The notes below the pieces were generated by a model. The model had not been told where the DNA came from. It saw nothing but the letters and a program-made list of their open reading frames with translations, and searched no databases. The position numbers and the translations under genes are program-made. DNA of 64,000 nucleotides from an uncultured Candidatus Binatia bacterium (GTDB lineage: Bacteria; Desulfobacterota; Binatia; HRBIN30): NCBI GenBank assembly GCA_964534275.1, contig CAZHQG010000010.1, positions 6,744-70,743 of the forward strand. The letters run 5' to 3'. Positions 1-57,722 of the stretch are shown here, piece by piece (position 1 is the first letter of the stretch; every line of letters starts with the position of its first letter).

Positions 1-366
1 TACCCCTGCCCCGCAGCTGCCCCCACACCGCCCGGTCCCACGCTCCGACAAGCACGAGCCAGCCGAAGCCCACCAGTAGCGACGGTAGCCACAACACCCA
101 GCTTCGTAGTGCGTGCGCCACCACCCTGCGGAACCTACGTAACCCTTGCCGCAAATCCTTCCGAACTTCGCGGAGGCGCTCGGGCGAATCCTCTTCCACC
201 GCGTATGCCTGCACCGCCTCTAAACTGGCGAGCGCAACACACTGCGCGCTTGACGAGTCCGTGGCAGCCCCTGCCCATCCTACGGCCAGAAACAGGATGG
301 CCCAAAAGAACGCTAGCGAGTGCGTCCGGCCGCGGCACTCAGCCGTTCTCACTTAAGCACACCTCG

Positions 367-759
367 CTAGCGCTGGGGTCTTCCGTGCTCCAACAGCCGC
401 TCGAGCTTCTGCCGAACTACCTCCGCATCCGTAATCGGCTTGGCAATGTAATCGTCGCACCCTGCAGCCAGTGCGCGTTGCTCGTCCCCTGCCATGGCCT
501 GCGCGGTCAACGCGATAATCGGAATACTCCGCCCTACTTCCGTTTGGCGAAGACGCCTCGTCGCTTCCCAGCCATCGAGGACCGGCATTTTGAGGTCCAT
601 GAAAATCAAGTCGGGAGGTTTTTCCGCCACCAAGCGCAACGCCTCTTCCCCGTTGTTCGCCTCGATAATCTCGTAATCGCCGAAGCGCTTCAGCCGATAA
701 ACCAAGATGCGCCGGTTGTCGACATTGTCCTCGGCAACCAGAATTCTCTTCCTGCTCAT
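367..759 (-). CDS. Stand-alone response regulator, single CheY-like receiver domain (about 131 aa). True start is MSRKRILVAEDN inside the longer ORF 367..1005.
   Basis: Translation MSRKRILVAEDNVDNRRILV...DLIFMDLKMPVLDGWEA...IIALTAQAMAGDEQRALAAGCDDYIAKPI carries the canonical receiver acidic pocket, phospho-Asp and Lys. The in-frame ATG at 757-759 is preceded by a purine-rich stretch. It lies downstream of, and on the same strand as, the paralog array. Confidence 0.8.
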   Translation of the reverse strand: MSRKRILVAEDNVDNRRILVYRLKRFGDYEIIEANNGEEALRLVAEKPPDLIFMDLKMPVLDGWEATRRLRQTEVGRSIPIIALTAQAMAGDEQRALAAGCDDYIAKPITDAEVVRQKLERLLEHGRPQR

Positions 760-862
760 GGGCCCAAGCTTACTAAGATTCCGTGCCGCATGCCAACCAA
801 AAAAAGGCCGCTGCCCTCGAACAGGCAGCGGCCCCTTGCAACCCAGCGTCAGCGAAGGCGCC

Positions 863-2083
863 TCAGTAAGCGACCGTATCCGCCTGAGCCTTGTCACCGC
901 GCAAATGGATGTTGAACGCGGCGGAACGAACAGCGTTGTTGTTCGGGTTCCGATGAAATTCCTCCACGATCGCGAGGATTCCGCTTCCGGGGTTCCCGTC
1001 TCCACTCAGCACCGGCCGGATCACCGTCTGTCCGGCTAGTGTTCCCTGCACACCAACATTGAACACCGAGAACGCCTCTTGTCCCGGCCGGCGGTCCAGC
1101 TGCGACAACTGAACCTCTCGGAAACACCGGAACCGTGTGCTCGCGGACATCCTTTGCTCGAACTCGTTAAACACTACGAATTGAAGCGTGTGCACGGCGG
1201 GGTTGTCGTCCACCTCTAACCGCTCGCTGCATGGAACCAACGTAATTTCGCTCGTCACCTCTCGCGCCGCGCTCAGGAGCGCATTGTCGAAGAAGTGATC
1301 CACGATGACCTGGGCGGAACATCCCGCATACTCACGATTTCCTCCCCCGAGTACCAGCGTTGTGTCATTTTGCGTGCTGCCGTCACTCAACACAGCCTGC
1401 ACACCCACGGCATTGTACGTTTGCACGTCCACTATTGCATTGTTCACACGGTAGATTGACGCATTCCCAACAAGGTCGTTGCGATTCACCGGAATGTTTG
1501 GATCGTTCCCGCTACCTACAACCTGCACACACTTCAGCTCTCCTTGGAAAATTCCCGGTGACAAAGGCGGTACGCGCCCAATGTCCTGATCTTGGCACAG
1601 CCCACCACCCGCACAGTCGTTATTGGCGCTGCAGGGAAACCCGGGCGAGGTTCCGCCCACGCAAAATCCGGTAGTCACCACACCCTCGCTCGCCCGCCAT
1701 CCAACCGGCTGATTCGCGGTCAGATTCAAATCGAAGTTGATCGCCTGGCAACTACTGAGCGTACAAATGCCACCGCCAGCGCAATCATCATTTGTCCGGC
1801 AAGCTCCGTCTCCGTCCAAGCCTCGCCCAATCGTACACCGCGGCGTCCCATCTACGTAGAAGCAATGAACAGAGGTGGCGTCGCGGCTGGTGTTTGTAAT
1901 CCGGATTACGGTGTCCATCGGTACCCCGTTGAGAGCGCCGCTCGGATCTACCACGACCTTTGGAAACACCAGGTAGCCGGCCGCCTCTTCCGTCGATACC
2001 TTCTGCCCAACAGCCGTGCTAGCCAGTAGCCCGCACGCAAGCAACGCAACCGGTAATCGAATGGCCATTCTCGCGTTCTTCAT
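863..2083 (-). CDS. Secreted protein, paralog A of an uncharacterised tandem family. Has a signal peptide and two CxxxDDCAGGG cysteine-rich inserts.
   Basis: ORF 863..2113, with start refined to MKNARMAIRLPVALLACGLLASTAVG (signal peptide, GAGGGTG RBS upstream). Shares motifs FPKVV, HCFY, NF(D/E)LxLTxxQP, PP(V/L)xPGxFxGxLxC, YNA, LVPCS, NEFEQ and AAFN with three neighbouring ORFs. Confidence 0.7.
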   Translation of the reverse strand: MKNARMAIRLPVALLACGLLASTAVGQKVSTEEAAGYLVFPKVVVDPSGALNGVPMDTVIRITNTSRDATSVHCFYVDGTPRCTIGRGLDGDGACRTNDDCAGGGICTLSSCQAINFDLNLTANQPVGWRASEGVVTTGFCVGGTSPGFPCSANNDCAGGGLCQDQDIGRVPPLSPGIFQGELKCVQVVGSGNDPNIPVNRNDLVGNASIYRVNNAIVDVQTYNAVGVQAVLSDGSTQNDTTLVLGGGNREYAGCSAQVIVDHFFDNALLSAAREVTSEITLVPCSERLEVDDNPAVHTLQFVVFNEFEQRMSASTRFRCFREVQLSQLDRRPGQEAFSVFNVGVQGTLAGQTVIRPVLSGDGNPGSGILAIVEEFHRNPNNNAVRSAAFNIHLRGDKAQADTVAY

Positions 2084-2125
2084 ATCACCCTCGCTTCGTT
2101 TGCACCGCCACATGGCACTCCCTCC

Positions 2126-3160
2126 CTAAGGCAAGCGAATCGTGGCGGACGTAGCCCCGCCAGTATGGAGGTTACTCGCTGCGCTGCCTGTCACTCCGGC
2201 TTGGTCAATGTGGAAGGACTCCGCCACGCCCACCAACCCGGTCGGTAGCCTTAGTTGCGCCTGAGCAAAGATGGTCGCGATCGCTCCACCCGTCAGCAAC
2301 GTCGACCGAAACTGCCCGGTTGTTTGCGGCGTATTCCCGAGGTCGATTGTCGTCCAGCACTGATGGGGAAATGATCCACTAAAGGGGGATTCAAATTCGT
2401 CGTACACGATGTACGACACCGTTCCGTTGCTCCGCACTCCAGCGGCAAGGTCCAGATTGCACGACAACAGCGTCAGGTTCGTCGCGATGAACGAATTCAG
2501 ATTCGCGTTGCCCAGGTCTTCGATGACCGGGTCCAGCGAGCCACGCGGACTGAAATTTAGGGTCAGCGAGCCTGGGCAGGTCTCGTATTCGCTGCCATCT
2601 AATGCCAGCGGGTTGCTGAGGCTCTGCGACACTGCAGCCACGGCGAACGCATTGTATTTGCTCACGTCGCCGGTGTTGTCATCCATGATGGTCACTTCCC
2701 CCTTGAGCCGGTTTTGACCCCGGGGATCGCCATTGGCGTCAACTTCTACACACACAAGCGCCCCTTGGAATCCGGGTGGAACAGGCGGAATCAACCCAGG
2801 GTCGAAGCCCGCGCCGGCGCTACCAAACGAATCTGTCGGGTCCACCCGGCGGCCTTGCGACACCCTCCATTGCGTAGGCTGCTGCCGAGTGAGCACAAGC
2901 TCGAAATCCACCGCGCCACAGTACCCACTGCCGTCTGGGGCCGACAGGTAAAAGCAGTGAACCCAGTTGATGGAGTTCCCGGTATTCGTGATTTGCACGA
3001 TCGTGTCGCGCTGGCCCGTGCGGACGACCTTCGGGAACATCAAGATCGAGCCCGGCCGATCCGTTCCAGATCTCGTCTGCTGCGCCTGGGAGCCGGCAGC
3101 GCCCGCGAAGACGCACAGCATTCCGATCCCCAAAAGCCAGCTCCTGTACAGTGCCCTCAT
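2126..3160 (-). CDS. Secreted protein, paralog B of the same uncharacterised family. It is the shortest member and lacks the Cys-rich inserts.
   Basis: ORF 2126..3190, with start refined to MRALYRSWLLGIGMLCVFAGAAGSQA (AAGGAGG RBS immediately upstream). Contains FPKVV, HCFY, DFELVLTRQQPTQW, IPPVPPGFQGALVCVEV, YNAF and YDEFES motifs. Confidence 0.7.
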   Translation of the reverse strand: MRALYRSWLLGIGMLCVFAGAAGSQAQQTRSGTDRPGSILMFPKVVRTGQRDTIVQITNTGNSINWVHCFYLSAPDGSGYCGAVDFELVLTRQQPTQWRVSQGRRVDPTDSFGSAGAGFDPGLIPPVPPGFQGALVCVEVDANGDPRGQNRLKGEVTIMDDNTGDVSKYNAFAVAAVSQSLSNPLALDGSEYETCPGSLTLNFSPRGSLDPVIEDLGNANLNSFIATNLTLLSCNLDLAAGVRSNGTVSYIVYDEFESPFSGSFPHQCWTTIDLGNTPQTTGQFRSTLLTGGAIATIFAQAQLRLPTGLVGVAESFHIDQAGVTGSAASNLHTGGATSATIRLP

Positions 3161-3235
3161 GGCTATCCTCCTTGCGGTCCGTCCCCGCATTGTTGACTCC
3201 TTTTTAAGTTCGCCTGGCTACTCATCGGCGCTGGC

Positions 3236-4444
3236 CTACGGCAAGATCATCAAGTCGCTCCGGCCATTCCCCTGCTGATGCAGGTCGTACGCCGCACTGC
3301 TCAGCGTCCCAGTGGGGAAATTCGCCTGCGCTACCCCGAGAAGCCCCGATCCGAGAGGCGAAACGCCACCCACCCCGCGGATTCGGGTTTGCCCCCCAAG
3401 CGTACCAGCGACGCCAGCACTGAAAATCGAGCGCGCAGGGTTGCGCGTGTCGATGCGCGATAGCTGCGTGGCGTGGAAGAGGCAATCCACAGTGCGGCTC
3501 GTCGAGAAGCGCTGCTCGAACTCGTTGAACACCAGAAACTGCGCTACCGAGCGGCCAGGTGTTTGGGTCGAGAAGTCGTTCGAGCACGGAACCAAGGTCA
3601 AGTCCGATATGTACTGAATCGCAACATTGTTCGTGATGGGATCTACTGCGCCGTCGAACATGTGGCTGAGAATCAGCACCCCGGGGCAGGATGCATAGTT
3701 GCCGCCGTCGGCTAGAACGAGCTGGCCGTTGGAAACGGGATTGCCGGTCGCCTCGAGGCCAACTGCATTATAACGAGCTGGATTTAGACCGGTTAGAATG
3801 GTGGCGTCGCCGTAAAGCTTGTCTCGGGTAGCCGTCTGGTCGGGGACACTCTGGCTGCCTCCGGTAAACTGGATGCACACCAACGCACCAATGAACGGAT
3901 CTTCTGGAACCGGGGGAATCGCGCTGCCCAGGTTGCTTTGACCGGTGTTGCAGCCGACGTTGTTTGGGCATTGCGCATCAGAGAAGCACTGGAGGTTGAC
4001 AAACGGGGCATTGCACCGAAACGGGCCTTCGAGCGGAAACTGCCCGCGCGCAAGCCCGTCGCTCGCATACCATGCCAGCGGCTGCTCTTGCGTGAGTACA
4101 ACATCGAAGTCGGTTTCGTTCCAGCTCGGCACGCACTCCCCGCGGCCGCCACAGTCCGTCGCATCGCGGCAACCAGCTCCATCGTTCGAACAGTGGCCGG
4201 TAGCGTTGATGTAAAAACAGTGCGCCTGTTTAATACCGCTCGCGTTTGTGCTGCTCAGCATCAGGCGCGTATCCGTCGGCGCTACCAACCAACGAGCGCT
4301 TGTGTCTACCACTATTTTGGGCCAAACCACGATGGACGCCGGTCGGTTCGTCGTGCTTCGGGCATTTGCAATACCAGCCATGGCCACCAATGCCACGCCC
4401 GCGCCTACTCCCATGCGGGCAGCCGCTTGCCACATCTTCTTCAT
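3236..4444 (-). CDS. Secreted protein, paralog C of the same uncharacterised family.
   Basis: ORF 3236..4606, with start refined to MKKMWQAAARMGVGAGVALVAMAGIANA (signal peptide, AAGGAG RBS). Motifs WPKIVV, HCFYINATGHC, CRDATDCGGRGEC, DFDVVLTQEQPLAW, LVPCS and FNEFEQ. Confidence 0.7.
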   Translation of the reverse strand: MKKMWQAAARMGVGAGVALVAMAGIANARSTTNRPASIVVWPKIVVDTSARWLVAPTDTRLMLSSTNASGIKQAHCFYINATGHCSNDGAGCRDATDCGGRGECVPSWNETDFDVVLTQEQPLAWYASDGLARGQFPLEGPFRCNAPFVNLQCFSDAQCPNNVGCNTGQSNLGSAIPPVPEDPFIGALVCIQFTGGSQSVPDQTATRDKLYGDATILTGLNPARYNAVGLEATGNPVSNGQLVLADGGNYASCPGVLILSHMFDGAVDPITNNVAIQYISDLTLVPCSNDFSTQTPGRSVAQFLVFNEFEQRFSTSRTVDCLFHATQLSRIDTRNPARSIFSAGVAGTLGGQTRIRGVGGVSPLGSGLLGVAQANFPTGTLSSAAYDLHQQGNGRSDLMILP

Positions 4445-4523
4445 CGCCGTACTCCTTTCGCTGCTCAACCGAGCTCGCTGCGATCTCGTCCGAATCGTCA
4501 CCATTTGCGCACCTCCGCCGCTT

Positions 4524-5795
4524 TTATGGCAACGTGATAATGTCGCCGAATCCCGAACGGCTACCCTCGTGGCGCAAGTTAAAGGCAGCGGTGCCAACCG
4601 AACCACCCAAGCTGTAGAATTCTTCCGCCACGCCCAAAACGCCCGAGGCAGGCAGGCAGCCTAGCACAGTGCCCCCAGGGCCGGTCTGCACGTTGGTGCC
4701 GCAGTCACTATGCTGGGTGCAGGAACTGCCCCTGTTCGAACCGGAATAACAAACGTTGATGGGACGAGGCGAAATGCGGATCTTCCAGAGGTCCTGGTTG
4801 CCGTTCACGAAGACCCCGCCGCCCGAAACCGGGAGGTCGGCGAGTCGGCGATTGAGGAAACAATCGAACGAGAAGGCCTCGATACTGAGCGGCTGCTCGA
4901 ACTCGTTGTATCCCACGAAACGAACACGCACAGGTGCGGGAAGGTCCTCTTCGATCAGTTCACTACAGGGAACCAACGTGAGCTCCGTGCTAATGGTGGC
5001 ACCCGTAAACGCGTCTGTGACACCCTCTGCGTTTGCCGTAAATACCAAGCTTGCTGGACAATAATTCAACTCTCCGGCACCCGTGCCGGTCCAGTTGAGC
5101 CGCAGCTCTTTATCCGTATTGAGGCCACCGCCTCCTACATCCGCATTCGCGGCTACGGTCAGGGCATTGTACTCGCTAATCTGCGCCGAACTAAGGTCCT
5201 CGATTGTCGCAGTGCCCTTCAGAGCATTCCCCGGAAACGGATCACCATCAGAGTTCATTTGGTAGCACTTGAGCTCGCCTACGAACTGGCTCCCCACCGG
5301 CGGAACGAAGGACGCCTGGTTCTGCCCAATCAACAGTCCAGGACACACGAGCTGTCCGGACGTGTCCACGGTACATTGGCAGTTCTGACCCGGGCGGCAT
5401 GGAGCCGAGGGAATGGTTGTGAGCCTCCCAGTGGACACCCGCCATTGCACAGGCTGCTGCGCGGTCAGAGCGAGTTCAAAATTCGTTGCATTGCACACGC
5501 GAATGCACTGCTCGTTCGTAGGACAGTCCGCATCGATCTCACAGCTCTCGTCTGTTGTCAGGCTGCAAGTCCCTGAGGCGTTGATGTAAAAACAGTGCAC
5601 CTGAACGAAAGAGTTTGTCCGGTTGCTCAGTTGGATAAGGGTATCGCGCACCCCATCGGACACTACCTTCGGAAAGATGATCAACGTGCCGGACTCATCC
5701 GACGTCACGTCTCCCCGTGCACCTGGCGCCGTCACCAGCCCCGCCAGCAGCACGCCTAGGCCCATCAGCCAAGGACTCCGCTTCACCAATCGCAT
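4524..5795 (-). CDS. Secreted protein, paralog D of the same uncharacterised family.
   Basis: ORF 4524..5948, with start refined to MRLVKRSPWLMGLGVLLAGLVTAPGARG (GGAGGCG RBS). Motifs FPKVV, HCFYINASGTC, CEIDADCPTNEQC, NFELALTAQQPVQW, LVPCSE and YNEFEQ. The C-terminus ends ...ITLP, like paralogs B and C. Confidence 0.7.
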   Translation of the reverse strand: MRLVKRSPWLMGLGVLLAGLVTAPGARGDVTSDESGTLIIFPKVVSDGVRDTLIQLSNRTNSFVQVHCFYINASGTCSLTTDESCEIDADCPTNEQCIRVCNATNFELALTAQQPVQWRVSTGRLTTIPSAPCRPGQNCQCTVDTSGQLVCPGLLIGQNQASFVPPVGSQFVGELKCYQMNSDGDPFPGNALKGTATIEDLSSAQISEYNALTVAANADVGGGGLNTDKELRLNWTGTGAGELNYCPASLVFTANAEGVTDAFTGATISTELTLVPCSELIEEDLPAPVRVRFVGYNEFEQPLSIEAFSFDCFLNRRLADLPVSGGGVFVNGNQDLWKIRISPRPINVCYSGSNRGSSCTQHSDCGTNVQTGPGGTVLGCLPASGVLGVAEEFYSLGGSVGTAAFNLRHEGSRSGFGDIITLP

Positions 5796-5944
5796 CGTAC
5801 GCCTCCTTTCGGTCATTCCAGCGTATGGCAAACGCCAGGATCTTTTCACCGACCCCAGCACAAACGCACGCGATGTATGCCCCAAAGGAGCACAAGAGTC
5901 AAGCCGAAATTGAAAATTTGTTCCTTGATGGCGTGGTGCGACGC

Positions 5945-8419
5945 TCACGGCGAGCGTCGCACCACGATTTCCGTCACAGGCCCTGGTCGCCCGCTCGTAT
6001 CGAGTACGCGTGCAGTCAACACCGTGTCTCCCACCGCGAACTCCAAGTTTCTACTGACCACAGCGCAGAATTGCCTTCCGCTACTCGGCAGGTTCGGCGT
6101 GATCGTAGCCTCGAGGCCGTCTGGCCCAAGAGTACAGGGTTCGCTCGGGAGTTTCGGGTCGAACCGGCAAGCAAAATCCACCAGCGCATCGATTTTGTCC
6201 GGCGCAAAATCCGCAACGCTCACGCCCGGCACCCCGCCTCCACCTTGAGCTACTGGCTGCGTGTCGCAAATCGTAGTGGAACCGTTCCCTAAGTCTCGGT
6301 TGCTCAGGATTTGCAAGCTCGGGTAGATCCCCAAGCCCGGGGTCGGGGGAGGCACGCTGGTGCCAACCGTTCCTCCCCCACTTCCAGGCCGGGCTTCCAA
6401 AACGAGATAGAAACCGGAGGAACTCCCGATGCGAAAAACTCGCCGGCCGGATCCGTCGAACTCTGGAGTTGGCGTCGGCGTGCTGCCGCAGAGGCAGCTC
6501 GGCTCGTTGCACCAGTAGCAGCCGTTCGCGCGGACCACTCCGAAGAAGGTGACGATCGGGCCGGCAGCAGCACTGGTGGCCGTCGGTGTGGCGGTGATTG
6601 TCGGCGTGGCAGTGATCGTGCGCGTGAGGGTGATGGTCGGGGTGGCGGTCGGGAGCGGCGTATTCGTCGGTGTGCGCGTGGCCGTACCTGTCGGAGTACT
6701 CGTCGGGGTGGCAGTGAACGAGCGCGTTGGTGTCGGAGTACGAGTCGAAGTCGGCGACCAAGTGTTGGTGGGTGTCAGCGTCAGAGTCGGCGTGCGTGTG
6801 GCTGTAGCCGTGCTCGTCTCGGTTCGCGTAGGAGTAGCCGTGCGCGAAGGAGTCGGCGACCACGTGCTCGTCGGCGTCCACGTAACCGTCGGCGTGCGTG
6901 TGGCTGTGGCTGTGCTCGTCTCAGTTTGAGTAGGAGTAGCCGTGCGCGAAGAAGTCGGCGACCACGTGCTCGTCGCCGTCCACGTGCCAGTGGGAGTTCC
7001 GGTTGCCGTGGCGCTACTCGTCGCGGTTCGTGTAGGCGTCGCTGTAGGCGACGCGGTGGGGGACCAGCTTGGCGTGGCCGAGGCCGTTGGAGTTCCCGTG
7101 AATGTAACCGTCGCGGGTGGGCTGGCAGTTCGGGTTGCCGATGGAGACGCCGTGCCCGACGAGGTGGTCGTGGAAGTCGGCGAAGCGCTCGCCGATGGTG
7201 TGTTCGTCGCGCTCGGTAAGGGAGTTCCCGAGGGCGAAAGGGTCGGAGACGGCGTAGCCGAAGAAGATCGCGTCGGAGTCGCGGTGTTGGACCCTGTGAG
7301 CGTTGGCTCCGGCGACGGCGTCATCGAGGGATTGGGGGTATCTGACGGTGTGCTGGTCGCCGAAGCCGTGCTCGACGGGCTGGGCGGGTTCGCCGTAGCC
7401 GTGGGAGAAGGTGTAGGCGTCTCGCTCCTCGTGGCACTTGGCGTTGCCGAGGGCGTTCGCGTGCGCGTGGGCGGGATCGTCCAAGTCGGAGTCGGTGTCG
7501 CTGTGTTAGACACCGTTGCCGTTGGCGTGCGTGTGGTCGTTGCCGAGCGCGACGGCGTGACGCTGGCCGTTCCTGTAACCGTTGCAGTCGCCGACAACGT
7601 TGGTAGGGGCGACTGCGTGGACGTGGCGGTGCCCGTGGGGCTCGCTGTCGCCAAGGGCTCTACTGGAGAGGGGCTCATCGAAGGCGTAGGACTCCCCGTC
7701 GGCGTAGGTTCTGCCGGTGTATCGGTAGGTTGTGGGGGCGGGGTCACCGAGGGCAACGGGGATTCGGTCGGAGACGCCAAGCCGGTTGCTGTCGGAGTTG
7801 GACTGAGCGACGGCACCGTAGTAAACATGGGTGTCGGTGTCCGGGAAGACGTCGCGGCCGGCGTCACGCTGACGGTCGGCGACGCTGAGTGGGTCGGACT
7901 GGGAGTTGGCGTCGACGAAGGTAATTCGTTGGCCGATCGCGTGGGCGATGGTGTGGATGTGGGCGATGCGGTTGGCGTTCCAGTGGCCGACCGAGTGCCT
8001 GTCGGAGTCGAACTGCGCGTTCGTGTCGGAAGCGCGGTGACCGTACCTGTTCCGGTTGGCGTTGCAGTTGCAACGGCACTCGCTGTTCGCGTGGGAGTTG
8101 GGGTAGAGGTGTCGGTTGGAAGGGACGTTGCGGTTGCGGACGCCGATGGACTCGGCGTACCGGTCGAGACCGGTGACGGGGTTTCAGAAGGAGGAGGCAA
8201 CACCAACAACCCAGCAAACCCAATGATGTCCGCAGCCGTCGCCCGCCCGTCGCCGTTCACGTCCGCCTGCGGACAATACGGATCCTCGAAGAGCGAGGCA
8301 GCAATCGCCGCGACTTCGGCGTCGGGTATGCTATCGCAGTTCACGTCGATGCTGACCGCGCTGGCAGTACTGGCCACCAGCCACAGCGTCAGCAGTCGCC
8401 CAACCCAACTTCTTACCAT
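5945..8419 (-). CDS. Large secreted protein (824 aa). It has a signal peptide, a dockerin-like double Ca-binding module, a roughly 500-aa Thr/Pro/Ser low-complexity linker, and a roughly 200-aa Cys-containing C-terminal domain.
   Basis: N-terminus [21 protein letters not shown] is a signal peptide. It is followed by [20 protein letters not shown] and [20 protein letters not shown], which are dockerin/EF-hand-like duplicated loops. The long TPTxTPS repeat region explains the junk ORFs in the other frames. It is the first gene of the minus-strand operon and its stop overlaps the frame of paralog D. Confidence 0.7.
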
Positions 8420-12269: not shown

Positions 12270-12776
12270 GGCTCGAGTATCGACACGTCCGCCAAAAAAC
12301 ACAATGGCACCGCAGCGCGAGACTGCCCCCCACGATTGCCCCAGACCACAGGCGGCACACTGCAGCGATCTTGCTTCGCCGGCCGTGAACATGGACTTGC
12401 CAAGTCTCGGCGCATGTCGTCGGTGGGCACCGAGCAGCGGAATCCATTAGGCAGGCGCAATTTGGTTGCGAAACGCGCTAATGGGTGATAGGGGCAGCAA
12501 CGGCGATGCACGAGTTGCGGACGAGATGGTGGTGGTTGGTGCAACATCGCGCCCTAGCTGTTTTTGTTCTTCCTCCACACGGCTTCAACGATGCACGCGC
12601 GCTTTGGAAGCGCGCCGATGTGCTCCAGGAATTCGTCATTGGCACACCTGGGGTTGACCTGTATACTTGTAGGCACGTTTGCAAGTGCGGTGTAGCGAGT
12701 GGAGCGATGACGTAGCGGGACGAACAACGAAAACGGCGTGGGGCATCACCGGCGGCAGACGCCAAGGAGCTCAAAG

Positions 12777-14720
12777 GTTATGGTGGACATCGACAAGGCT
12801 CAGTTTCAACGGCTGATCGAAGAAGATCGGGCCGCCCGGGGTGCGAGAGAGTGGCGGGGAACTTTTCTCGATTACCTCGAGCGGGTCAAACAAGATCCGT
12901 CGATCCCCAAGCTTGCCCATGCCCGGATCTACGACATGATCCTGCAAGCCGGCGTGCGGGATGTGCTCGACACCGACGACCCCCGCACGAAGCGGCTATT
13001 CAAAGACGAGCCGCTCAAAATTTACAACTTCTTCGCGGATTCGTTCTTTGGCATCGAGCGCGTGATCGCGCAAATTGTGCGGTACTTCCACGCGGCTGCC
13101 CTCAAGGGCGAGGAAAGCCGGCAGGTCTTGTACCTGATGGGGCCGGTCGGTTCAGGAAAGAGTTCGCTGGTCGAGCACATCCAACGGGGTCTCGAACAAA
13201 GCCCCCCGTTTTATGCGATCGAGGGCTGCCCCATGTTCGAGGAACCGTTGCACTTACTCCCTCGCCACTTGCGGCGCGAGTTCGAAAAAATGCTTGGGGT
13301 GCACATCGAAGGCGACCTCTGCCCGGTGTGTCGTTTTCGCCTGAAAGAGGAGTACCGCGGAAAGTACGAGGAAGTTCCGGTCGTGTTGCGGTCGTTCTCC
13401 AAGCGTAACCGGGTTGGCATCGGAGTGGTGCCGCCGGTGGACCCGAACAACCAAGACACCTCGGTGCTCATCGGGTCGGAAGACATCTCCAAGCTCGACC
13501 TATACTCCGAAGGGGATCCGCGGGTGTTGGATCTCAACGGGGCGCTGAACGTCGGCAACCGCGGCATCGTCGAGTTCATCGAGGTCTTCAAAAACGAAAC
13601 GGAATACCTGCATGCAATGATCACCGCCACGCAAGAGAAGGTGATTCCCGCGCCGGGACGCCACGGAATGGTGTACGTAGACGAGGTGATCATCGCGCAT
13701 TCCAACGAGGCGGAGTGGCAAAAGTTCAAGTCTGACCACACCAACGAGGCCATCCTCGACCGCATCGTGGTGGTCAAGGTTCCCTACAACCTGCGGCTCT
13801 CGGAAGAAGTGAAAATCTACGAAAAAATCCTGCGCAACTCGGACTTCCGTGCCCACATCGCCCCGCACACGTTGGAGATCGCCTCGATGTTCGCAATTCT
13901 GACGCGGCTCGAACCGACGAGCAAATGCGACCTGATGACCAAGCTCAAGCTCTACAACGGGGAAGAGGTGATCGAAAAAGGCCGGACAAAGAAAATCGAT
14001 GTGCGAGAGTTGCGCGAGGACGCAAAGCGGGAAGGCATGTTCGGCATCTCCACGCGCTTCATCATGAAGGCGTTGGACAACGCTTTGTCGGACAATATCG
14101 AAGGCAACTGCATCAACCCGATCAGCGTCCGCGAGGCTTTGATCCAAATGACGAAAGAAGCCGACCTGCCCGACGATACCCGCAAGCAATACCTCGAGTT
14201 CTTGCAAGACACCCTGCACAAGGAATACCTGGACATCCTCGAACGCGAGATCACCAAGGCCTTCGTGTACTCTTACCAAGAGCAAGCCGAAGCATTGTTC
14301 CAAAACTACCTCGACCATGCGGAAGCATTCGTGAACCGCACGAAGGTACGCGACCGGAACACCAAGGAAGAACTTCAACCCGACGAGGCTTTCTTGAAAT
14401 CGATCGAGGAACAAATCGCCATCATCGGTTCTGCGGCCGAAGGCTTCCGGCAAGAAGTCATTGCGTACCTGTGGGCGGCAAGCCGCCGCGGGGAAAAGGT
14501 GACGTACCAGAGCTACGAGCCCCTGAAGGAGGCGATCGAGAAGAAACTGATGACCTCGGTGCGCGACATTAGCCGCATCATCACCAAGGCGCGCACGCGA
14601 GACGAAGAGCAAACGGAAAAGTACAATGCCATGGTGCGCAACCTGCTCACGCAAGGATATTGCCACAGTTGCGTGGACGTGGTGCTCAAATACGCCGCAA
14701 ACAACTTGTGGAAGGATTGA
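12777..14720 (+). CDS. prkA: PrkA family serine protein kinase (YeaG-like).
   Basis: Long colinear similarity to PrkA/YeaG, including the AAA-type GPVGSGKSSL Walker A motif. It is followed by yeaH-like and spoVR-like genes. Confidence 0.85.
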   Translation, partial: VMVDIDKAQFQRLIEEDRAARGAREWRGTFLDYLERVKQDPSIPKLAHARIYDMILQAGVRDVLDTDDPRTKRLFKDEPLKIYNFFADSFFGIERVIAQIVRYFHAAALKGEESRQVLYLMGPVGSGKSSLVEHIQRGLEQSPPFYAIEGCPMFEEPLHLLPRHLRREFEKMLGVHIEGDLCPVCRFRLKEEYRGKYEEVPVVLRSFSKRNRVGIGVVPPVDPNNQDTSVLIGSEDISKLDLYSEGDPRVLDLNGALNVGNRGIVEFIEVFKNETEYLHAMITATQEKVIPAPGRHGMVYVDEVIIAHSNEAEWQKFKSDHTNEAILDRIVVVKVPYNLRLSEEVKIYEKILRNSDFRAHIAPHTLEIASMFAILTRLEPTSKCDLMTKLKLYNGEEVIEKGRTKKIDVRELREDAKREGMFGISTRFIMKALDNALSDNIEGNCINPISVREALIQMTKEADLPDDTRKQYLEFLQDTLHKEYLDILEREITKAFVYSYQEQAEALFQNYLDHAEAFVNRTKVRDRNTKEELQPDEAFLKSIEEQIAIIGSAAEGFRQEVIAYLWAASRRGEKVTYQSYEPLKEAIEKKLMTSVRDISRIITKARTRDEEQTEKYNAMVRNLLTQGYCHSCVDVVLKYAANNLWKD

Positions 14721-14794
14721 ACCTGGCCATGAGCACGGTGTGGTAACTGCGCTGGCCTGGGCATCGTGGTCCTAGGCCAAGGAGCTGAAGACAC

Positions 14795-15976
14795 ATGCCC
14801 ATTCCCGAGTCGATTTTCAGGCCGTTCAATCCGTCCGATGCCGAGCGGAGCGACCGAGCCGCCGGGGATCGTCAGCGACACCGAGAAAAGGTACGCCAGT
14901 CGATCCGCGAAAACATCGCGGACATCATCGCCGAGGAGGCGATTATCGGCAAAGATGGCAGCCGGATCATCAAGGTGCCCATCCGAGGCATCAAAGAGTA
15001 CCGGTTTGTGTACGGCGAAAATACACCCGGAGTGGGACAGGGTGAAGGCGAGCTGGAGCCCGGGCAAGTCTTACGCAGCGGGGAAGGAGAGGGAGAAGGG
15101 CCAGCCGAGCGACCGGGGGATCGACCCGGCGTGGATTACTACGAAACCGACGTCACCCTGGATGAACTCGTCGAAATCATGTTCGAGGATCTCGAACTCC
15201 CGGACCTCGAGCGGCGCAAACTGCGAGAGCTACCAGCGCTGCGAATCCTCAAGCGCAAAGGGTACCGCAGTGCGGGCCTGCGGGTGCGCTTGGACAAGCG
15301 GCGCACGGTGAAGTCCAAGGTGCGCCGGCGTTTAGCGTCGCAGCGGCGGACCGAACTGGGCACGGGCGAACGGTTCCCGTTCCACGAAGACGATTTGACT
15401 TACCGCCACATGGTGCCGGACGTAAAAGAGGAATCCAACGCCGTGGTGCTGTGCATGATGGACACCTCTGGCTCCATGGACACGATGAAGAAATACCTCG
15501 CCCGCAGCTTCTTCTTTCTCCTCTTCCAGTTCGTCCGGGCCAAGTACCGGAACGTCGAACTCGTCTTTATTGCCCACCACACGGAAGCTCGGGAAGTTTC
15601 GGAAGAAGAATTTTTCCACAAAGGAGAATCCGGGGGCACGTTCATTTCTTCCGCGTACCAAAAGGCGTTGGAGATCATTCAGGAACGGTACCATCCTTCG
15701 CTTTGGAACATCTACGCGTTTCACTGTTCCGACGGCGATAATTTCGAGTCCGACAATCCCACGGCACTCAAGTTGGCCGAAGAACTTTGCCAAGTCGCCA
15801 ACCTGTTCGGATACGGAGAAATCAAGCCCCTCGGGTCGCGATATTACGAAAATTCCATGCTTCAACTGTTCCGCCGCATCGAGGCGGACAATTTCCATAC
15901 GGTTTTAATCGAGCGGAAAGAAGACGTGTGGCCGAGCTTTAAAGCATTTCTCGCCCGCGACCGCGTTCGGGAGTGA
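14795..15976 (+). CDS. YeaH/YhbH family protein (DUF444, vWA-like).
   Basis: ETDVTLDELVEIMFEDLELPDLERRKLRE and the C-terminal vWA-like region match UPF0229. It occupies the conserved position between prkA and spoVR. Confidence 0.8.
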   Translation: MPIPESIFRPFNPSDAERSDRAAGDRQRHREKVRQSIRENIADIIAEEAIIGKDGSRIIKVPIRGIKEYRFVYGENTPGVGQGEGELEPGQVLRSGEGEGEGPAERPGDRPGVDYYETDVTLDELVEIMFEDLELPDLERRKLRELPALRILKRKGYRSAGLRVRLDKRRTVKSKVRRRLASQRRTELGTGERFPFHEDDLTYRHMVPDVKEESNAVVLCMMDTSGSMDTMKKYLARSFFFLLFQFVRAKYRNVELVFIAHHTEAREVSEEEFFHKGESGGTFISSAYQKALEIIQERYHPSLWNIYAFHCSDGDNFESDNPTALKLAEELCQVANLFGYGEIKPLGSRYYENSMLQLFRRIEADNFHTVLIERKEDVWPSFKAFLARDRVRE

Positions 15977-15977
15977 C

Positions 15978-17411
15978 ATGCGTTCCTACGACCTTCACGA
16001 CCTGATCGAGTGGGACAAGCGCATCCGCGACAAAGTGGCTGCGTTCGGGCTCGACTGTTTCCCTCAGGAGTTCGAACTTTGCGACCACAATCAAATGCTG
16101 GGCTACATGGCGTACTCTGGAATGCCTTCCCACTACCCGCATTGGTCGTACGGCAAAGCGTACGAGAAACTGAAAACCCTGTACGATCACGGTGTTGCCG
16201 GGCTGCCTTACGAAATGGTGATCAATTCCAATCCTGCACTTGCCTATCTCATGCGCGACAACACGCTTGCCCTACAAATCCTGACCATCGCGCACGTGTA
16301 CGCGCACAACGACTTTTTCAAAAACAACTTCACGTTCCAAAGCACGCACCCGGAGTACGTCATTGGGACGATGAAAAGCCATGGTCAGCGGGTGCGCTCC
16401 TACATCGAGTCGCCCAGCATCGGGATCGATGAGGTCGAGCGGGTCCTCGACGCCGCTCATGCCCTTGCGCTGCAGTGCCGACGCAATCTCGCCGTACGCA
16501 AGCTCAGCGAGGAGGAACAACGGCAACGCAAGCTGGAAGCCGCCAACCCTCGGGAAGATCCGTTCGCCAAGGTGCACAAACGGCAGCCAATCTCCACCCC
16601 AGATCTACACAAGGTGCCGCTCGAACCCGAAGAAGACTTGTTGCTCTTCATCCGCGACCACAATCCGTACCTCGAAGAATGGCAGCGCGACCTGCTGACG
16701 ATCGTGCACGAGGAAGCACAGTACTTCATCCCGCAAATCGAAACGAAGATCATGAACGAGGGCTGGGCCACGTTCTGGCACAAGCGCATCCTCGAGAGTC
16801 TGGAGCTGCCCCAGGATTTGCACTTGGAGTTTCTCGTGCGTCACAACCAGGTGGTGCGCCCGATCCCAGGAGGGCTCAACCCTTACCACATCGGGTGGAA
16901 GATCTGGGAAGATCTTTACCGGCGCTACGAACACCCCGAGCCGGATGAAGAAGAAAGCTTGGAATCCGGGGTTCGTTCTGGCCTGGAAAAAATCTTCTCT
17001 GTGCGGGCAGCCGATCGCGACGCTTCGTTCCTGCGCCGCCACCTAACCGAGAAGCTCGTTCGCGAGTTGCGTTTGTTCGAGTACCGCGTTCGAGGAGGAG
17101 ATTGGGTAGTCACGGAAGTTGCCGATGACGAGGGGTGGCGGCAAATCAAGGAAACACTGATCCGCTCCGTGGGCATGAACAGCGTGCCGGTCATCAAGGT
17201 GGAGGATGCAGACTTCGGACACCAACGGACATTGCTGCTCGTGCACGAACACGATGGGCGCGACCTACACCTGGAATACGCAGAAAAAACTCTCGCCTAC
17301 GTTCACCAACTGTGGGGCCGGGACGTTGCCCTGCAAACGATCGTGAACGGGAAAAAAGTTCTCCTGCAGTACGGCGAACGTGGGTTCACCACGAGGCAAC
17401 TGACCCGTTAA
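15978..17411 (+). CDS. spoVR: SpoVR family protein (YcgB-like).
   Basis: MRSYDLHDLIEWDKRIRDKVAAFGLDCFPQEFELCDHNQMLGYMAYSGMPSHYPHWSYGK is the canonical SpoVR N-terminus. Confidence 0.85.
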   Translation: MRSYDLHDLIEWDKRIRDKVAAFGLDCFPQEFELCDHNQMLGYMAYSGMPSHYPHWSYGKAYEKLKTLYDHGVAGLPYEMVINSNPALAYLMRDNTLALQILTIAHVYAHNDFFKNNFTFQSTHPEYVIGTMKSHGQRVRSYIESPSIGIDEVERVLDAAHALALQCRRNLAVRKLSEEEQRQRKLEAANPREDPFAKVHKRQPISTPDLHKVPLEPEEDLLLFIRDHNPYLEEWQRDLLTIVHEEAQYFIPQIETKIMNEGWATFWHKRILESLELPQDLHLEFLVRHNQVVRPIPGGLNPYHIGWKIWEDLYRRYEHPEPDEEESLESGVRSGLEKIFSVRAADRDASFLRRHLTEKLVRELRLFEYRVRGGDWVVTEVADDEGWRQIKETLIRSVGMNSVPVIKVEDADFGHQRTLLLVHEHDGRDLHLEYAEKTLAYVHQLWGRDVALQTIVNGKKVLLQYGERGFTTRQLTR

Positions 17412-26830: not shown

Positions 26831-28339
26831 TCACGGAAAGAAACTTTTGGCTGAAACCGGGGTAGCAGCAGCCCCGACCGCAAACTGGCTCAGATAGCGC
26901 TGTTGTACCCAAAGGGTCGCCACCCTATCACGGTACACGGCATGCCAATCAGGCTCGCGTTCGATCGGGTGCACCAGCCCCGCCGGAAGCAAGACTGCCT
27001 GCGTCGGATACCCTTCGAGCAACCGGCGCCACGAACCCTCGGCCCGAAAAAAAGCAAAGTTGTCGGCGACAACCTGCTGCGGATACACGGTGGCAAACCT
27101 GCCGTCGAGTGACGGCCGGACCCGCGGAGCCAAGTGCCACAACACATAGCCTCCCCAATCCAACGGTACAGCCAAATTCCCTTGTGCGCCTCCAGCCTGC
27201 AGGGCGGACACAGCTCCGACGGGATACTCTTCGGTGCGGAAAACCAGCCGGCCGCGCGACTCTAAAAGGTGAGCCCCCGCCAACACCACTTGGACCGTTG
27301 CAACAAGAGCAACTCCGATCGTCAAGAATCGCTGCGCACCGATACTGAAGTGCACTCCACGGTCCTGCAACCACCAGACGAGCCGTTGCCATTGCACAAC
27401 CAATAACGGAGCTGCACACAGGACAAACACTGGGGTGTGGCGCTGGTGTTGCCCCGCGAAGTACAGCACAGCAAGTGCGACAACTGCCCGCCAGCCGTTG
27501 GACCACGTCCAGGGCAGGCACGGTAAGGTTGCTAGCACTGCGCCGGCAAAAAAAAGAAACGGCCCGTGCTCCCAGTCGAACGTTACCGGTTGCCATTCCG
27601 TAATCGGATGGGGGCGGCCAAGCTCGTCAGCCAAATAAAGGTATAGGCCGGGTCCGTACGGGTTCACCCAAGTGGCAGCCAAGCAAAGAACCACCAAGCC
27701 GCACCTTCGTACGAACTCTTCCCGCCCGAGGCCAAGGCCACCCGCAGCGAAGGGCAGGAGCACGGCCACGCCCAAGACGAAACCACCATGAAGGTTGGCC
27801 CAACAGGCAAAGGTTATCGGCAACAACGTCCACACCAGCATGCGACGACCGCCAAGCTCCCAACGAGCCAACGCCCAAAACAGAGCCGGTAACAATAAGT
27901 AAGAAACGAGCTGGGGGCGCACTGCCCAACCCCGCCCAAGCACCGGAATTGCAACCAGCAGGACAAAGCCCAGGACCCAAGGTGAAAGGGACTTTAGTTG
28001 CCGGGTCCTGCAAGCCGGCTGAAGCTCCCACAAAGCCTGGGCACCACGTGCAAGAAATGCCACCGAGCCAGCGACCAAACCGAGCTTGAGCAGGAGCAAC
28101 AGAGAGCTGCCCCCTAAACGGAAGCCCGTAAATGCCAGCACTTGCCAGAGCCACTCGTGGTCTACCCAGGGTGCACCGGCAACGGTGTAGCTCAGTGTGT
28201 CGACACCTGGGATCGCCGCATGTTCGAGGATCCATCGTCCCACGAACAAGTGCATCCACAAGTCGTTATCGGCTTCGGGGACGGCGCCAAAGTACACGGT
28301 CGCCGCGGCGATCACCGCCAACCAAAGGCGCCCGTTCAT
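26831..28339 (-). CDS. Polytopic integral membrane protein, possibly a glycosyltransferase-like (GT39/DUF2029-type) enzyme.
   Basis: Many hydrophobic segments rich in W, G and L, with a C-terminal soluble region. No specific family is recognised. The ORF opens at 28465. Confidence 0.45.
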   Translation of the reverse strand: MNGRLWLAVIAAATVYFGAVPEADNDLWMHLFVGRWILEHAAIPGVDTLSYTVAGAPWVDHEWLWQVLAFTGFRLGGSSLLLLLKLGLVAGSVAFLARGAQALWELQPACRTRQLKSLSPWVLGFVLLVAIPVLGRGWAVRPQLVSYLLLPALFWALARWELGGRRMLVWTLLPITFACWANLHGGFVLGVAVLLPFAAGGLGLGREEFVRRCGLVVLCLAATWVNPYGPGLYLYLADELGRPHPITEWQPVTFDWEHGPFLFFAGAVLATLPCLPWTWSNGWRAVVALAVLYFAGQHQRHTPVFVLCAAPLLVVQWQRLVWWLQDRGVHFSIGAQRFLTIGVALVATVQVVLAGAHLLESRGRLVFRTEEYPVGAVSALQAGGAQGNLAVPLDWGGYVLWHLAPRVRPSLDGRFATVYPQQVVADNFAFFRAEGSWRRLLEGYPTQAVLLPAGLVHPIEREPDWHAVYRDRVATLWVQQRYLSQFAVGAAATPVSAKSFFP

Positions 28340-28344
28340 CCGGC

Positions 28345-29340
28345 TTAGGGGTTCTCCTCGACTGCGCCAAATCGTGCCTGTCCAGGCATCCACAGGTACC
28401 AAAACTGAGGCCCCATCGAAACCGCGCCGACTTCGCCCAAGAACAGCTCCGCAAGCACCGACCAAAGGCTTGCTGGCGAGTAGATATTCTCGGCTTGTTG
28501 CGACGGTCGCTGATACACTACGACGGTTGCTTCCTCGAGATTCGCTAGCTCCCGTGCACGACGAATTGCGTCATCGAGGTAACCGATGCGGTCTACCAGA
28601 CCGAGCGCCCGAGCTTCTTCGGCATACAGCACTCGTCCGTCTCGGATCGTCTGAAGGCTCTCCCCAGTGATGGCCGGTCGCCGCTCTTGCACGAGAGCGA
28701 GGAAACGCTCGTGCATTGCCGTGAGGATACGCTGCAACACGGCCTCGTCTTCCGAGGTCATCGGACGCAGTGGAGAACCGGCGTCTTTGAGCGCTCCGGA
28801 CTTGAGCGTTTGATTTTTCACTCCGAGCTTATCCATGAGACCGCTCATGTTGATGCCCGCCAACACCACGCCAATACTGCCCGTCACCGTGGTCGGACTG
28901 GCAACAATCTCGTCTGCAGCAAGAGCGACATAGTATGCTCCCGAGGTCCCGACATCGAGCAAGTGCGCGACCATGGGACGGCCTGTCTTGGTACGAAACT
29001 CCCGCAATTCGCGGTACAACGTGTCGCTTGCGGTGACCGTACCACCTGGGCTGTTAATCCTAACCACCACAGCCCGCACCCGATCATCCTTCTCCGCCCG
29101 CTTGAGTTCCTCCCGCACGCGGGCCAAGAGGCTTGGCCGCGGCGACCCCAAAAGGCCGGGACGTTCTGCGGACACGATCACGCGAGAAACGTCGATCAGC
29201 AGAACCTTCTGCTTGCCGGATCCTTCAAGCCGTCGTTCCACCAGAGGCTCGGGGCGCGTTCGAAACGGGTTCAAATCCGCCTGAATGAACACACACCCAG
29301 GAATCCACGCTCCGACTGCGCCCACAAGGAATAAGCGCAT
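28345..29340 (-). CDS. sppA: Signal peptide peptidase SppA, 36K type (S49).
   Basis: VRINSPGGTVTASD...TTVTGSIGVV, with the catalytic Ser/Lys region typical of S49. Start refined to MRLFLVGAVGAW. Confidence 0.8.
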   Translation of the reverse strand: MRLFLVGAVGAWIPGCVFIQADLNPFRTRPEPLVERRLEGSGKQKVLLIDVSRVIVSAERPGLLGSPRPSLLARVREELKRAEKDDRVRAVVVRINSPGGTVTASDTLYRELREFRTKTGRPMVAHLLDVGTSGAYYVALAADEIVASPTTVTGSIGVVLAGINMSGLMDKLGVKNQTLKSGALKDAGSPLRPMTSEDEAVLQRILTAMHERFLALVQERRPAITGESLQTIRDGRVLYAEEARALGLVDRIGYLDDAIRRARELANLEEATVVVYQRPSQQAENIYSPASLWSVLAELFLGEVGAVSMGPQFWYLWMPGQARFGAVEENP

Positions 29341-37749: not shown

Positions 37750-38020
37750 AGCTCCGCCCCGTGTGGGACGGGCTCCTCGACAAACGCGGCAAGAACCGTG
37801 GGATGTGAGCCTCAAAACGGCGCGCACCGAAGACCTGGAGGCATGCCCCCTCCCTACAAGCCGCAGCCGTACAAAACCGCAGAGCTCCTCCGTCAGGGGG
37901 TAAGCGGAGAAGCGACCCCCAGGGGGGTAGGTGCCAACTTCTCCCCCCGACTCCACCGAGACCAATCGATTGCTCCGATCGACGTGCGAAGCCCGTACGG
38001 GCCAACCCCGGATTTGCCCC

Positions 38021-38880
38021 GGATTTGGACACGCACAGAAGCGAACTGCGAACCTCTAAAATTTGGACACGCACGAAACCTGCGGCGGCCCACCGCCGCG
38101 CAGACTCCCCTCACTGGGCTCTCGCGGGCAGCTGCGGCAGAGGCACCCAACCCCACGTTCGAGCAAAGATTTGGACACACACCAAACGACGAGCGGGTTA
38201 GTCCGGAGGCACTCGAGAACACCGCCCCAACAGCACCGCGATTGGGGCCGGGGCCCGCCCCCCCGGCCCTCTTTCCGGAGCTTTCAACCTTCCTTACTTA
38301 TTGCCTCCGGTTCCGCCCTGGAGACCCAGTAGCCGCCAGCCAAACAATCCGGCCTTGGCCCGGGCGGACCCCACGGCACCAAAAACGGCCGCTCAAAATC
38401 GATCCCGTGCGTCGCCTCCGAGCGGCACGTCGCAAATCGTGTGTGTCCATAAACGAGGCCCCAGGGTGCAGCTCCCCGCAACTCGCCACAAATCAGGGGG
38501 TTGAGCGCGCGTACCAAATTTTGGTGTGTGTCCTCAAATTCTCTCACGTACCAAATTTTGGTGTGTGTCCTCAAATTCTCTCACGTACCAAATTTTGGTG
38601 TGTGTCCTCAAATTCTTCAGGTCCCAAAATCCCAAGTGCCTGGCTGGCCGCTGACCTAAGGTCGCCGTTTGATGTGTGTCCTGAATTGCATCCCTCCTAA
38701 TCAGTCCTCCGACGGCCATCGTTTGGTGTGTGTCCTGAATCTTCTCGGCGGGCGGCTGACGTACGGTCAAGGATTGGTGTGTGTCCTGAATTTTTCTCTC
38801 TGGCCGGGAGGGGACGAGTTACGGTCGTTCTTTCGTGTGTGTCCTGAATCTTCCCTGAATCTTCCTGTGAATTTTCCTTC
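38021..38880. repeat. Second cluster of the GGACACAC/GTGTGTCC-core repeat, with at least 11 copies. The first three (38.03-38.19 kb) are in one orientation and the rest in the opposite orientation.
   Basis: aaatttggacacgcac x2 and gatttggacacacaccaaacg, then tgtgtgtccataaacg, 3x accaaattttggtgtgtgtcctcaaattctctca, gatgtgtgtcctgaattgc, tttggtgtgtgtcctgaatcttc, gattggtgtgtgtcctgaattttt and tttcgtgtgtgtcctgaatcttc. It lies in the 1.37-kb non-coding gap upstream of the mevalonate genes. Confidence 0.65.
38509..38619. repeat. Perfect 37-bp tandem direct repeat, about 2.9 copies (cgtaccaaattttggtgtgtgtcctcaaattctctca).
   Basis: Copies at 38509-38545 and 38546-38582 are identical. The third copy (38583-38619) diverges only in its last roughly 6 nt. 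The units are contiguous with no spacers. Confidence 0.85.
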
Positions 38881-42271: not shown

Positions 42272-42275
42272 CGCC

Positions 42276-46523: not shown

Positions 46524-46538
46524 CAGGGAGAGCTCACC

Positions 46539-48293: not shown

Positions 48294-48301
48294 GGAGCGC
48301 C

Positions 48302-49684: not shown

Positions 49685-49697
49685 GATGAGGCAACGG

Positions 49698-54026: not shown

Positions 54027-54090
54027 AACCATGCGCGTATGGGAACAAACCCATAGCAAGGAACAAATTTCCGTTTCGGGGGTCGCCGAG

Positions 54091-57649: not shown

Positions 57650-57722
57650 GCACCCTGTTGGCAAGACCAACAAGGTCCCGGGAAAGACGGGTTGACGTCG
57701 GGGCTGCACTGCGGTTCCATGC

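Follow-up and report, generated by a model that had tools for sequence, protein, structure and literature searches.

A gene cluster for exported proteins at positions 367-8419 of the window (a 64,000-nucleotide stretch of contig CAZHQG010000010.1 from an uncultured Candidatus Binatia bacterium) is genuine, is conserved in the class Binatia and has not been described before. Six open reading frames (ORFs), all on the minus strand, make up the locus and are called G1 to G6 here. G1 encodes a protein with a dockerin-like module, a Thr/Pro-rich stalk and a C-terminal head (the D protein), G2 to G5 encode four secreted paralogs, and G6 encodes a stand-alone receiver. The four paralogs are two alpha/beta gene pairs, with G2 and G4 belonging to an alpha subfamily and G3 and G5 to a beta subfamily. 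Throughout the class, D genes, a four-gene array and a receiver gene lie in synteny. An earlier reading of the window by sequence inspection, the original prediction, had proposed an undescribed secreted module at this locus, and the proposal holds, as the paralogs belong to no known family and the linkage is conserved.

Binatia are abundant, globally distributed and uncultured, and their cell biology is known only from inventories of metabolic genes. The module described here is among the most conserved lineage-specific features of the class. Its building blocks are known, namely a dockerin, a Thr/Pro linker, an immunoglobulin (Ig)-like domain, an ASRT-type fold and a CheY-like receiver. What had not been described is the alpha/beta family with its rule of pairing, its association with a dockerin-stalk-head protein and the conserved class-wide cluster. 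The cluster is novel but not paradigm-shifting. The literature yielded no paper linking Binatia with dockerins, and a preprint on Binatia metaproteomics does not mention the alpha/beta family.

Conserved alpha/beta arrays in Binatia

The proteins encoded by G2 to G5 share 30-37% pairwise identity and a set of common motifs (FPKVV, HCFY, NFELxLT..QP..W, PPV..F.G.L.C, YNA, LVPCS, NEFEQ and AAFN), every one of which was found in all four, as originally listed. Members of the family carry signal peptides and conserved disulfide cysteines. The four paralogs had been described as impossible to map to a named domain, and the searches agree: profile scans gave no Pfam or NCBIfam match for G2 to G5, the 106 relatives scanned all stayed below every Pfam threshold, and a sequence search of the PDB with the family profile returned nothing at E<=10. 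The sole profile signals are weak Cys-knot-like matches (DUF7107, DX, EB and CarbpepA_inh) in inserted Cys-rich loops. No internal duplication was detectable when the N-terminal and C-terminal halves were aligned with hhalign (probability 0.3%).

The family is restricted almost entirely to Binatia. G5 has 1,466 relatives in a protein collection clustered at 90%, and the named ones are all hypothetical proteins from Candidatus Binatia or 'bacterium HR30'. Profile searching of 1.84 billion representatives identified 1,848 clusters at 50% identity with E<=1e-3, including 620 with E<=1e-30, and none of the 1,848 is annotated. Scanning one genome per GTDB species gave 228 matching stretches, from which 79 loci were kept. 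Almost all of these loci are titled Binatia. A few carry the names Deltaproteobacteria, Myxococcales, Margulisiibacteriota or Terriglobales; they share the synteny of the others and probably come from metagenome-assembled genomes with a wrong label. Within the window, a six-frame scan with hidden Markov models (HMMs) found no further copy of the alpha/beta family, no second G1-type head and no second receiver.

The loci are of two types. Type A comprises 24 loci together with the window, and its layout is one to three D genes, a four-gene array, a receiver gene scoring ~200 bits against G6 and usually a gene for a DUF1232-like membrane protein, which is the conserved neighbour after the receiver in 17 loci. 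It is uncertain whether this last gene belongs to the module. The linkage of the paralogs to the dockerin/Thr-Pro protein and the receiver was kept in all informative loci, that is, in type A loci with a long enough contig: a D gene lies before the array in 22/22, and a receiver orthologue lies directly after it in 22/22. A further D gene stands directly after the receiver in seven loci. The 22 type A loci of the genome scan come from 22 different assemblies, one each, and each genome has several further alpha/beta arrays. Type B comprises 58 loci with alpha/beta pairs or multiples that have neither a D gene nor a receiver and are flanked by housekeeping genes. Informative neighbours of these arrays were sought, and the flanks turned out to encode an IlvE-like aminotransferase, glutathione synthetase, LptD, FolC, an MsbA-like ABC transporter and an FG-GAP lipoprotein. 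The recurrence of such flanks reflects shared ancestry and not function.

The pairing rule emerged from 249 family members of 82 non-redundant loci, which were aligned to the family HMM and grouped by average-linkage clustering of their identities. Two clades, alpha and beta, alternate by gene position. The order is alpha-beta-alpha-beta in all 23 four-gene type A arrays and alpha-beta in 31 of 32 two-gene arrays, and four- and six-gene arrays without a G1 gene obey the same alternation. At finer resolution, alpha1 and alpha2 each form a clade of their own, as do most beta2 genes, and beta1 groups with the beta genes of type B loci. Therefore, the four-gene arrangement is old, and the positions with their own clades have orthologues across genomes. 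The findings define a family with a clear alpha/beta rule and offer a candidate non-cohesin partner for a dockerin.

Intrinsic terminators delimit the arrays. Counting hairpins with a free energy of -18 kcal/mol or lower and a T-run, within 140 nt past a stop codon, a terminator follows the last beta gene in 21/23 type A arrays, 24/30 two-gene arrays and 11/13 type B four-gene arrays. Each internal position of two- and four-gene arrays has a terminator in 0 or 1 loci, and D genes are followed by one in 1 of 41 cases. The stem sequences vary between loci, and the hairpin is retained. In the window, a 15-bp G+C-rich stem and a T-run (837-802) lie between the stop codon of G5 and the start codon of G6. 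Since the terminator comes after beta2 and not internally, the D gene and the alpha-beta-alpha-beta genes appear to form one transcription unit, with the receiver behind the terminator. The locus had been taken for a six-gene operon; G1 to G5 can be retained as one unit, but the receiver is, on this sequence evidence, a conserved neighbour outside it. In three-gene arrays the terminator follows gene 2, and in eight of them (L020, L021, L024, L026, L031, L039, L056 and L079) the third gene falls in its own clade inside the alpha group and looks like a separately transcribed third subfamily.

The co-orientation and short spacing of the six genes are as predicted, with intergenic gaps from G1 to G6 of 149, 79, 45, 42 and 103 nt. 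Each gene had also been assigned its own Shine-Dalgarno site. Such sites are clear for G1 (AGGGA), G2 (GGAGG), G3 and G4 (both AGGAG) and G5 (GAGG), but inspection of the sequence upstream of G6 revealed none. The T-run is separated from the G6 start codon by ~35 nt. Because a terminator precedes G6 and no Shine-Dalgarno site is visible, expression of the receiver is probably low, through read-through or from a promoter inside G5.

G6 itself is a canonical receiver by its features. It matches Pfam Response_reg (PF00072) with 91.2 bits (cut-off 30.2), all pocket residues (E10, D11, D55, T85 and K107) are present, and its best relatives in the PDB are receivers of hybrid kinases, PleD and DivK (E ~1e-22 to 1e-23). 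G6 shares the family match and the five signature residues with CheY, DivK and the receivers of PleD and hybrid kinases. It differs from known single-domain response regulators in its surroundings: it has no output domain and no kinase, chemotaxis or cell-cycle genes nearby, and its conserved partner is a cluster for exported proteins with a terminator in between. The receiver had been reported to have no kinase in the window, and a search of the 30 largest other ORFs returned neither HisKA nor HATPase_c; the genes that recur beside the 24 type A loci include no kinase either. In a comparison with the PADLOC defence models, G1 to G5 had no match and G6 had weak generic receiver-like matches (E 1e-5 or weaker).

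Fusion proteins, the D protein and the predicted fold

Several of the 150 best family representatives exceed the usual length, and the architectures of these long proteins were examined by sequence inspection, HMM searches and Pfam scans of ten of them. P0252 (951 aa) has the order alpha, beta, dockerin/EF pair, Pro-rich linker and G1-type head, and P0298 (661 aa) and P0329 (651 aa) have the order beta, dockerin, linker and head. The family and head HMMs score 195-304 bits on these three proteins. At locus L087, a separate alpha gene precedes the P0298 gene with a 4-nt overlap. When fusion and split forms are compared, the break point falls exactly between beta and the dockerin module. Fusions of alpha and beta occur in both orders, as beta-alpha in P0195 and P0273 and as alpha-beta in P0252. 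Such 'Rosetta stone' proteins indicate that alpha, beta and the dockerin-stalk-head protein act in one complex. Other fusions contain beta and a dockerin with no head (P0300), beta followed by Cys repeats and a dockerin (P0291 and P0302), or a large beta-propeller protein with a C-terminal family (F) domain (P0283, 1520 aa, and P0293, 1443 aa). P0283 combines a CarboxypepD_reg domain with a 7-bladed propeller, and P0293 has propellers of the Vgb_lyase/NHL type; in both, the complete family domain is preceded by an additional, incomplete copy of its N-terminal part. A 986-aa protein elsewhere in the window (54031-56991, plus strand) has the Cys-rich DUF4215 repeat as its only Pfam match and contains no F or head domain. 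In the fusions P0291 and P0302, repeats of this type follow the beta domain.

G1 has the architecture that was predicted for it: a signal peptide, two DVNxD loops, a linker rich in Thr and Pro and a Cys-containing C-terminal domain. The N-terminus (aa 1-21) is signal-peptide-like, with cleavage before VS, and the two loops follow it. The first of these Ca-binding loops is degenerate in the window genome, and the window protein scores 11.9-17.5 bits against Pfam Dockerin_1 (PF00404), below the cut-off of 22.9, with only the second loop aligned. The orthologous N-terminal modules from six other loci exceed the cut-off, with 23.6-36.2 bits over profile positions 1-50 of 57. By these profile scores, the G1 family carries a dockerin module of which the window copy is a degenerate one. 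The proposed duplicated dockerin-like module therefore stands as regards its two loops and its orthologues, but the copy in the window falls short of the threshold.

Residues 75-640 of G1 consist to 78% of Thr, Pro, Ser and Ala. Over the stalk-coding stretch, the GC skew reverses. Stalk length ranges from ~170 to ~570 aa among orthologues. A 102-bp tandem repeat lies within the stalk-coding region of G1 at 6747-7036 (2.3-2.8 copies, 81-86% matches). The variable length together with the tandem repeat suggests that the stalk grows and shrinks through repeats.

The head contains 8 Cys and the motifs LGNGS..CD, GGVPG, DFACRF and QFC. It belongs to a family with 68 homologues, for which Pfam gave no match. 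The N-termini of head-family members are variable and consist of a dockerin module, a lipobox such as LAACGG (P0157 and P0160) or, in the fusions, beta-F. Members with a lipobox carry a Thr/Pro linker where others have the dockerin. Because head-family members vary at the N-terminus in this way, the N-terminus appears to mediate attachment, with the head lying distally. In public gene calls of relatives, G1-type genes are split, as in P0122, P0124 and the orthologue of window 5945-8419 at L001:3469-6136. The stalk is mis-called as an ORF of 680 aa that runs on the opposite strand; the annotated remainder is a C-terminal fragment of 150-200 aa. As a result, databases hold mostly truncated 'hypothetical proteins' for this family. 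The present analysis corrects this systematic error in the strand assigned to the stalk.

The alpha/beta family was called unrecognised in the original prediction, which is accurate by sequence but not by structure. An AlphaFold model of G4 built from 106 aligned sequences has a mean predicted local distance difference test score (pLDDT) of 83.9 and a predicted template modelling score (pTM) of 0.83. It is all-beta and consists of two beta-sandwich domains. Foldseek matched it to ASRT/TM1070 with a probability of 1.00 at 11-12% identity. Structure prediction and fold comparison thus indicate that one of the two domains has the eight-stranded ASRT/TM1070 (ASRAH) fold. ASRAH domains are eight-stranded sandwiches that form tetramers and have a cleft that is a predicted sugar-binding site (De Souza, Iyer and Aravind 2009; PMC2739507). 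Their signature is an aromatic residue (W) that opens strand 1 and a conserved Asn that closes strand 2 before a tight turn (PMC2739507). The N-terminal domain of the Binatia proteins has F or W in the strand (F/W)PK(V/I)V and a near-invariant N69 that ends the strand DTxIQLTN; a near-invariant Asn (N264) is also found in the C-terminal domain. Conserved polar residues of the family that might line a pocket are K54, D58, D62, T63, N69, Q104, W108, E144 and K146.

Outside the ASRT family, the ASRAH domain 'always occurs either as dyads or as tetrads' (PMC2739507). The occurrence of the Binatia genes in twos and fours would fit this rule, as an analogy at the gene level. Secreted ASRAH forms are known from a peptidoglycan amidase and from actinobacterial surface lipoproteins (PMC2739507). 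Both of these features make the Binatia family resemble ASRT/TM1070 (PF07100, formerly DUF1362), but the differences are considerable. The Binatia proteins are three times larger, since they possess another beta-sandwich domain as well as signal peptides and loop insertions rich in Cys, and their disulfides are conserved. The two subfamilies of these proteins are obligately paired, and both lack the H/C pocket signature SHEshChhN. The actinobacterial lipoproteins with two ASRAH domains are likewise exported and lineage-specific, with an ASRAH-type fold in a dyad arrangement. Their dyad resides inside one lipoprotein that is linked to a glycosyltransferase, whereas the Binatia dyad consists of two separate paralogous proteins that have a dockerin/stalk/head partner and no glycosyltransferase.

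A possible envelope assembly and competing explanations

The alternation of alpha and beta, the fusions and the precedent of ASRT-fold proteins together predict a hetero-oligomeric complex. Our preferred, though tentative, reading is an envelope-bound alpha/beta base carrying stalked heads that are attached through the dockerin module; its assembly, location and binding are what we infer, and it may well be correct without yet counting as probable. Alpha and beta would assemble outside the cytoplasm as an alpha-beta dimer, and at this locus probably as an alpha1-beta1-alpha2-beta2 tetramer, like ASRT-fold proteins. The complex would be an envelope-associated base, probably gripping a cell-envelope glycan through the ASRT-like pocket. 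G1 would dock on this base by its dockerin-like module, and docking would replace both the covalent link of the fusions and the lipid anchor of those head-family members that are lipoproteins. The Thr/Pro stalk, which is probably glycosylated, would project the Ig-like head outward, where it could bind a ligand or surface outside the cell. Read-through probably yields small amounts of the receiver, which may tie the module to a phosphorelay.

The proposed docking invites comparison with the type I dockerin-cohesin pairs of cellulosomes (PF00404 and PF00963). The module of G1 orthologues likewise has two Ca-binding loops and two helices and scores above the Dockerin_1 threshold, and in G1, as in cellulosomal proteins, a Thr/Pro linker joins the dockerin module to a globular domain. 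A further resemblance is that the G1 gene is apparently co-transcribed with genes for beta-sandwich proteins that could be the receptor. In contrast to cellulosomes, no cohesin was detected by sequence or fold, and no carbohydrate-active enzyme is attached. The dockerin of G1 is also N-terminal, has two conserved cysteines and, in the window, is degenerate and below threshold. A bolder version of the proposal makes the ASRT-fold alpha1-beta1-alpha2-beta2 heterotetramer a non-cohesin dockerin receptor in a new kind of cell-surface apparatus, where it would fix long glycosylated stalks with Ig-like heads to the envelope, with the orphan CheY-like regulator controlling production or assembly. This version is unlikely to be right in full; if it were, it would establish a new class of dockerin receptors and give an extracellular assembly of ASRT-fold proteins its first function.

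Several observations weigh against the envelope-bound base. Pfam ASRT (PF07100) gave no match at E<=1 in the four paralogs and none among the 106 members. The positions of F/W-P-K and N69 favour the N-terminal domain as the ASRT-like one, but the fold match is not assigned to either domain. Neither a cohesin-like fold nor a match to the Cohesin family (PF00963) was found in F or the head, and the contact between the dockerin and F is pure inference. The fusions retain the dockerin module despite the covalent link, and P0300 has beta and a dockerin without a head; the dockerin may bind some third partner. There is no nearby D gene or receiver at 58 of the 82 loci. The cluster contains no glycosyltransferase. 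Finally, Binatia are presumably diderm, and a Sec signal peptide guarantees export to the periplasm only.

The alternatives account for parts of the same evidence. Alpha and beta could be the building blocks of a polymeric surface structure, either a surface-layer (S-layer)-like sheet or a pilus-like fibre, that is decorated by G1-type proteins. Paired paralogous beta-sandwich subunits in tandem, with several arrays per genome, would suit such a polymer, as would the strong Shine-Dalgarno sites and strong terminator that are typical of highly expressed structural genes, and the conserved cysteines could cross-link its subunits. However, the model has no significant structural match to a known S-layer protein or pilin, its only strong match being a small soluble tetramer. 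The conserved neighbourhood contains no usher, sortase or dedicated secretion genes, and the single terminal F module of the propeller proteins fits binding or anchoring better than it fits a polymer subunit. We regard a sheet or fibre as unlikely, although it deserves to be kept in view.

The retention of the dockerin in fusions leads to another explanation, in which the dockerin would engage a third protein that is not genetically linked. G1 and alpha/beta would then be cargo on a cohesin-like anchor encoded elsewhere, and co-transcription would reflect a shared destination. The beta proteins with only a C-terminal dockerin pair (P0300, P0291 and P0302) and the missing cohesin-like fold in F and the head point the same way. 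Against this, none of the conserved neighbourhoods contains a cohesin, within a search that did not extend to the genome outside the window, and the fusion of F with the head still argues for one complex. An external anchor of this kind seems rather improbable.

Two functional readings have little in their favour. The first treats alpha and beta as beta-jelly-roll hydrolases or lyases of the GH16 type, with the E-x-E of the NEFEQ strand at the active site and G1 as a dockerin-recruited, substrate-binding accessory of a cellulosome-like system; the alignment of 106 sequences shows no variation at E265, E267, S271, Q104 and Y179, and dockerins classically recruit enzymes, but the 106 members give no Pfam or NCBIfam enzyme signal, the dockerin here is on the non-F protein, and fused members replace the second Glu (R and A in P0252, G in P0288 and P0291), so that an enzyme pair is very unlikely. 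The idea of a catalytic E-x-E was dropped because several family members have lost this second Glu. The second reading, which we consider equally doubtful, makes alpha/beta an extracytoplasmic sensor of a ligand such as a sugar, which would use its ASRT-like pocket to report to a membrane histidine kinase and on to the receiver, with G1 as an accessory. ASRT-fold proteins have been proposed as small-molecule sensors that work via protein-protein contacts (PMC2739507), and the syntenic receiver of type A loci (22/22), the D gene directly after it in 7 of them and the conserved DUF1232-like membrane protein would agree with signalling. The window and the conserved neighbourhood lack a kinase, though, the receiver lies behind a terminator, 58/82 loci have no receiver, and a protein with a 550-aa stalk fits a sensor poorly.

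Layout of the locus and other genes of the window

The features of the locus are listed in the table below, in which gene coordinates follow the most plausible start codons.

Table. Genes, protein regions and terminator of the locus in the window.
Feature	Position	Strand	Description
G1 (D protein)	5945-8419	-	824 aa
Dockerin-like module of G1	8201-8356	-	aa ~22-73; two EF-hand-type loops; Cys at 28 and 49
Thr/Pro-rich stalk of G1	6545-8200	-	aa ~74-625, ~550 aa; T 32%, P 19%, S 16%, A 11.5%
Head domain of G1	5948-6544	-	aa ~626-824; Ig-like, disulfide-rich; conserved domain ~175 aa
G2 (alpha1)	4524-5795	-	423 aa; secreted two-domain beta-sandwich protein with Cys-rich loop insertions; alpha subfamily by identity clustering
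G3 (beta1)	3236-4444	-	402 aa; beta subfamily by identity clustering
G4 (alpha2)	2126-3190	-	354 aa; minimal alpha form without Cys-rich insertions; 6 Cys after the signal peptide
G5 (beta2)	863-2083	-	406 aa; beta subfamily by identity clustering
Intrinsic terminator	795-837	-	stem GGGGCCGCTGCC...GGCAGCGGCC, then T-run
G6 (stand-alone CheY/DivK-like receiver)	367-759	-	130 aa
DUF1232-like membrane protein gene	1-330	-	start portion, cut by the window edge; matches the gene downstream in L001

Elsewhere, the window contains three long candidate ORFs without a Pfam match at E<=1e-5, at 26831-28465 (minus strand, 544 aa), 37798-38700 (plus strand, 300 aa) and 57510-58667 (minus strand, 385 aa). 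A three-gene operon for PrkA, DUF444 and SpoVR, a conserved stress/starvation kinase module, occupies 12738-17411 on the plus strand. The region 39628-51520, also on the plus strand, is a mevalonate-pathway and hopanoid cluster. Its products are GHMP kinases, an FMN-dependent dehydrogenase (IDI-2-like), HMG-CoA reductase, squalene-hopene cyclase, a double SQS_PSY protein, an HpnE-like protein of the amine-oxidase type and an HpnH-like radical-SAM/DUF3463 protein.

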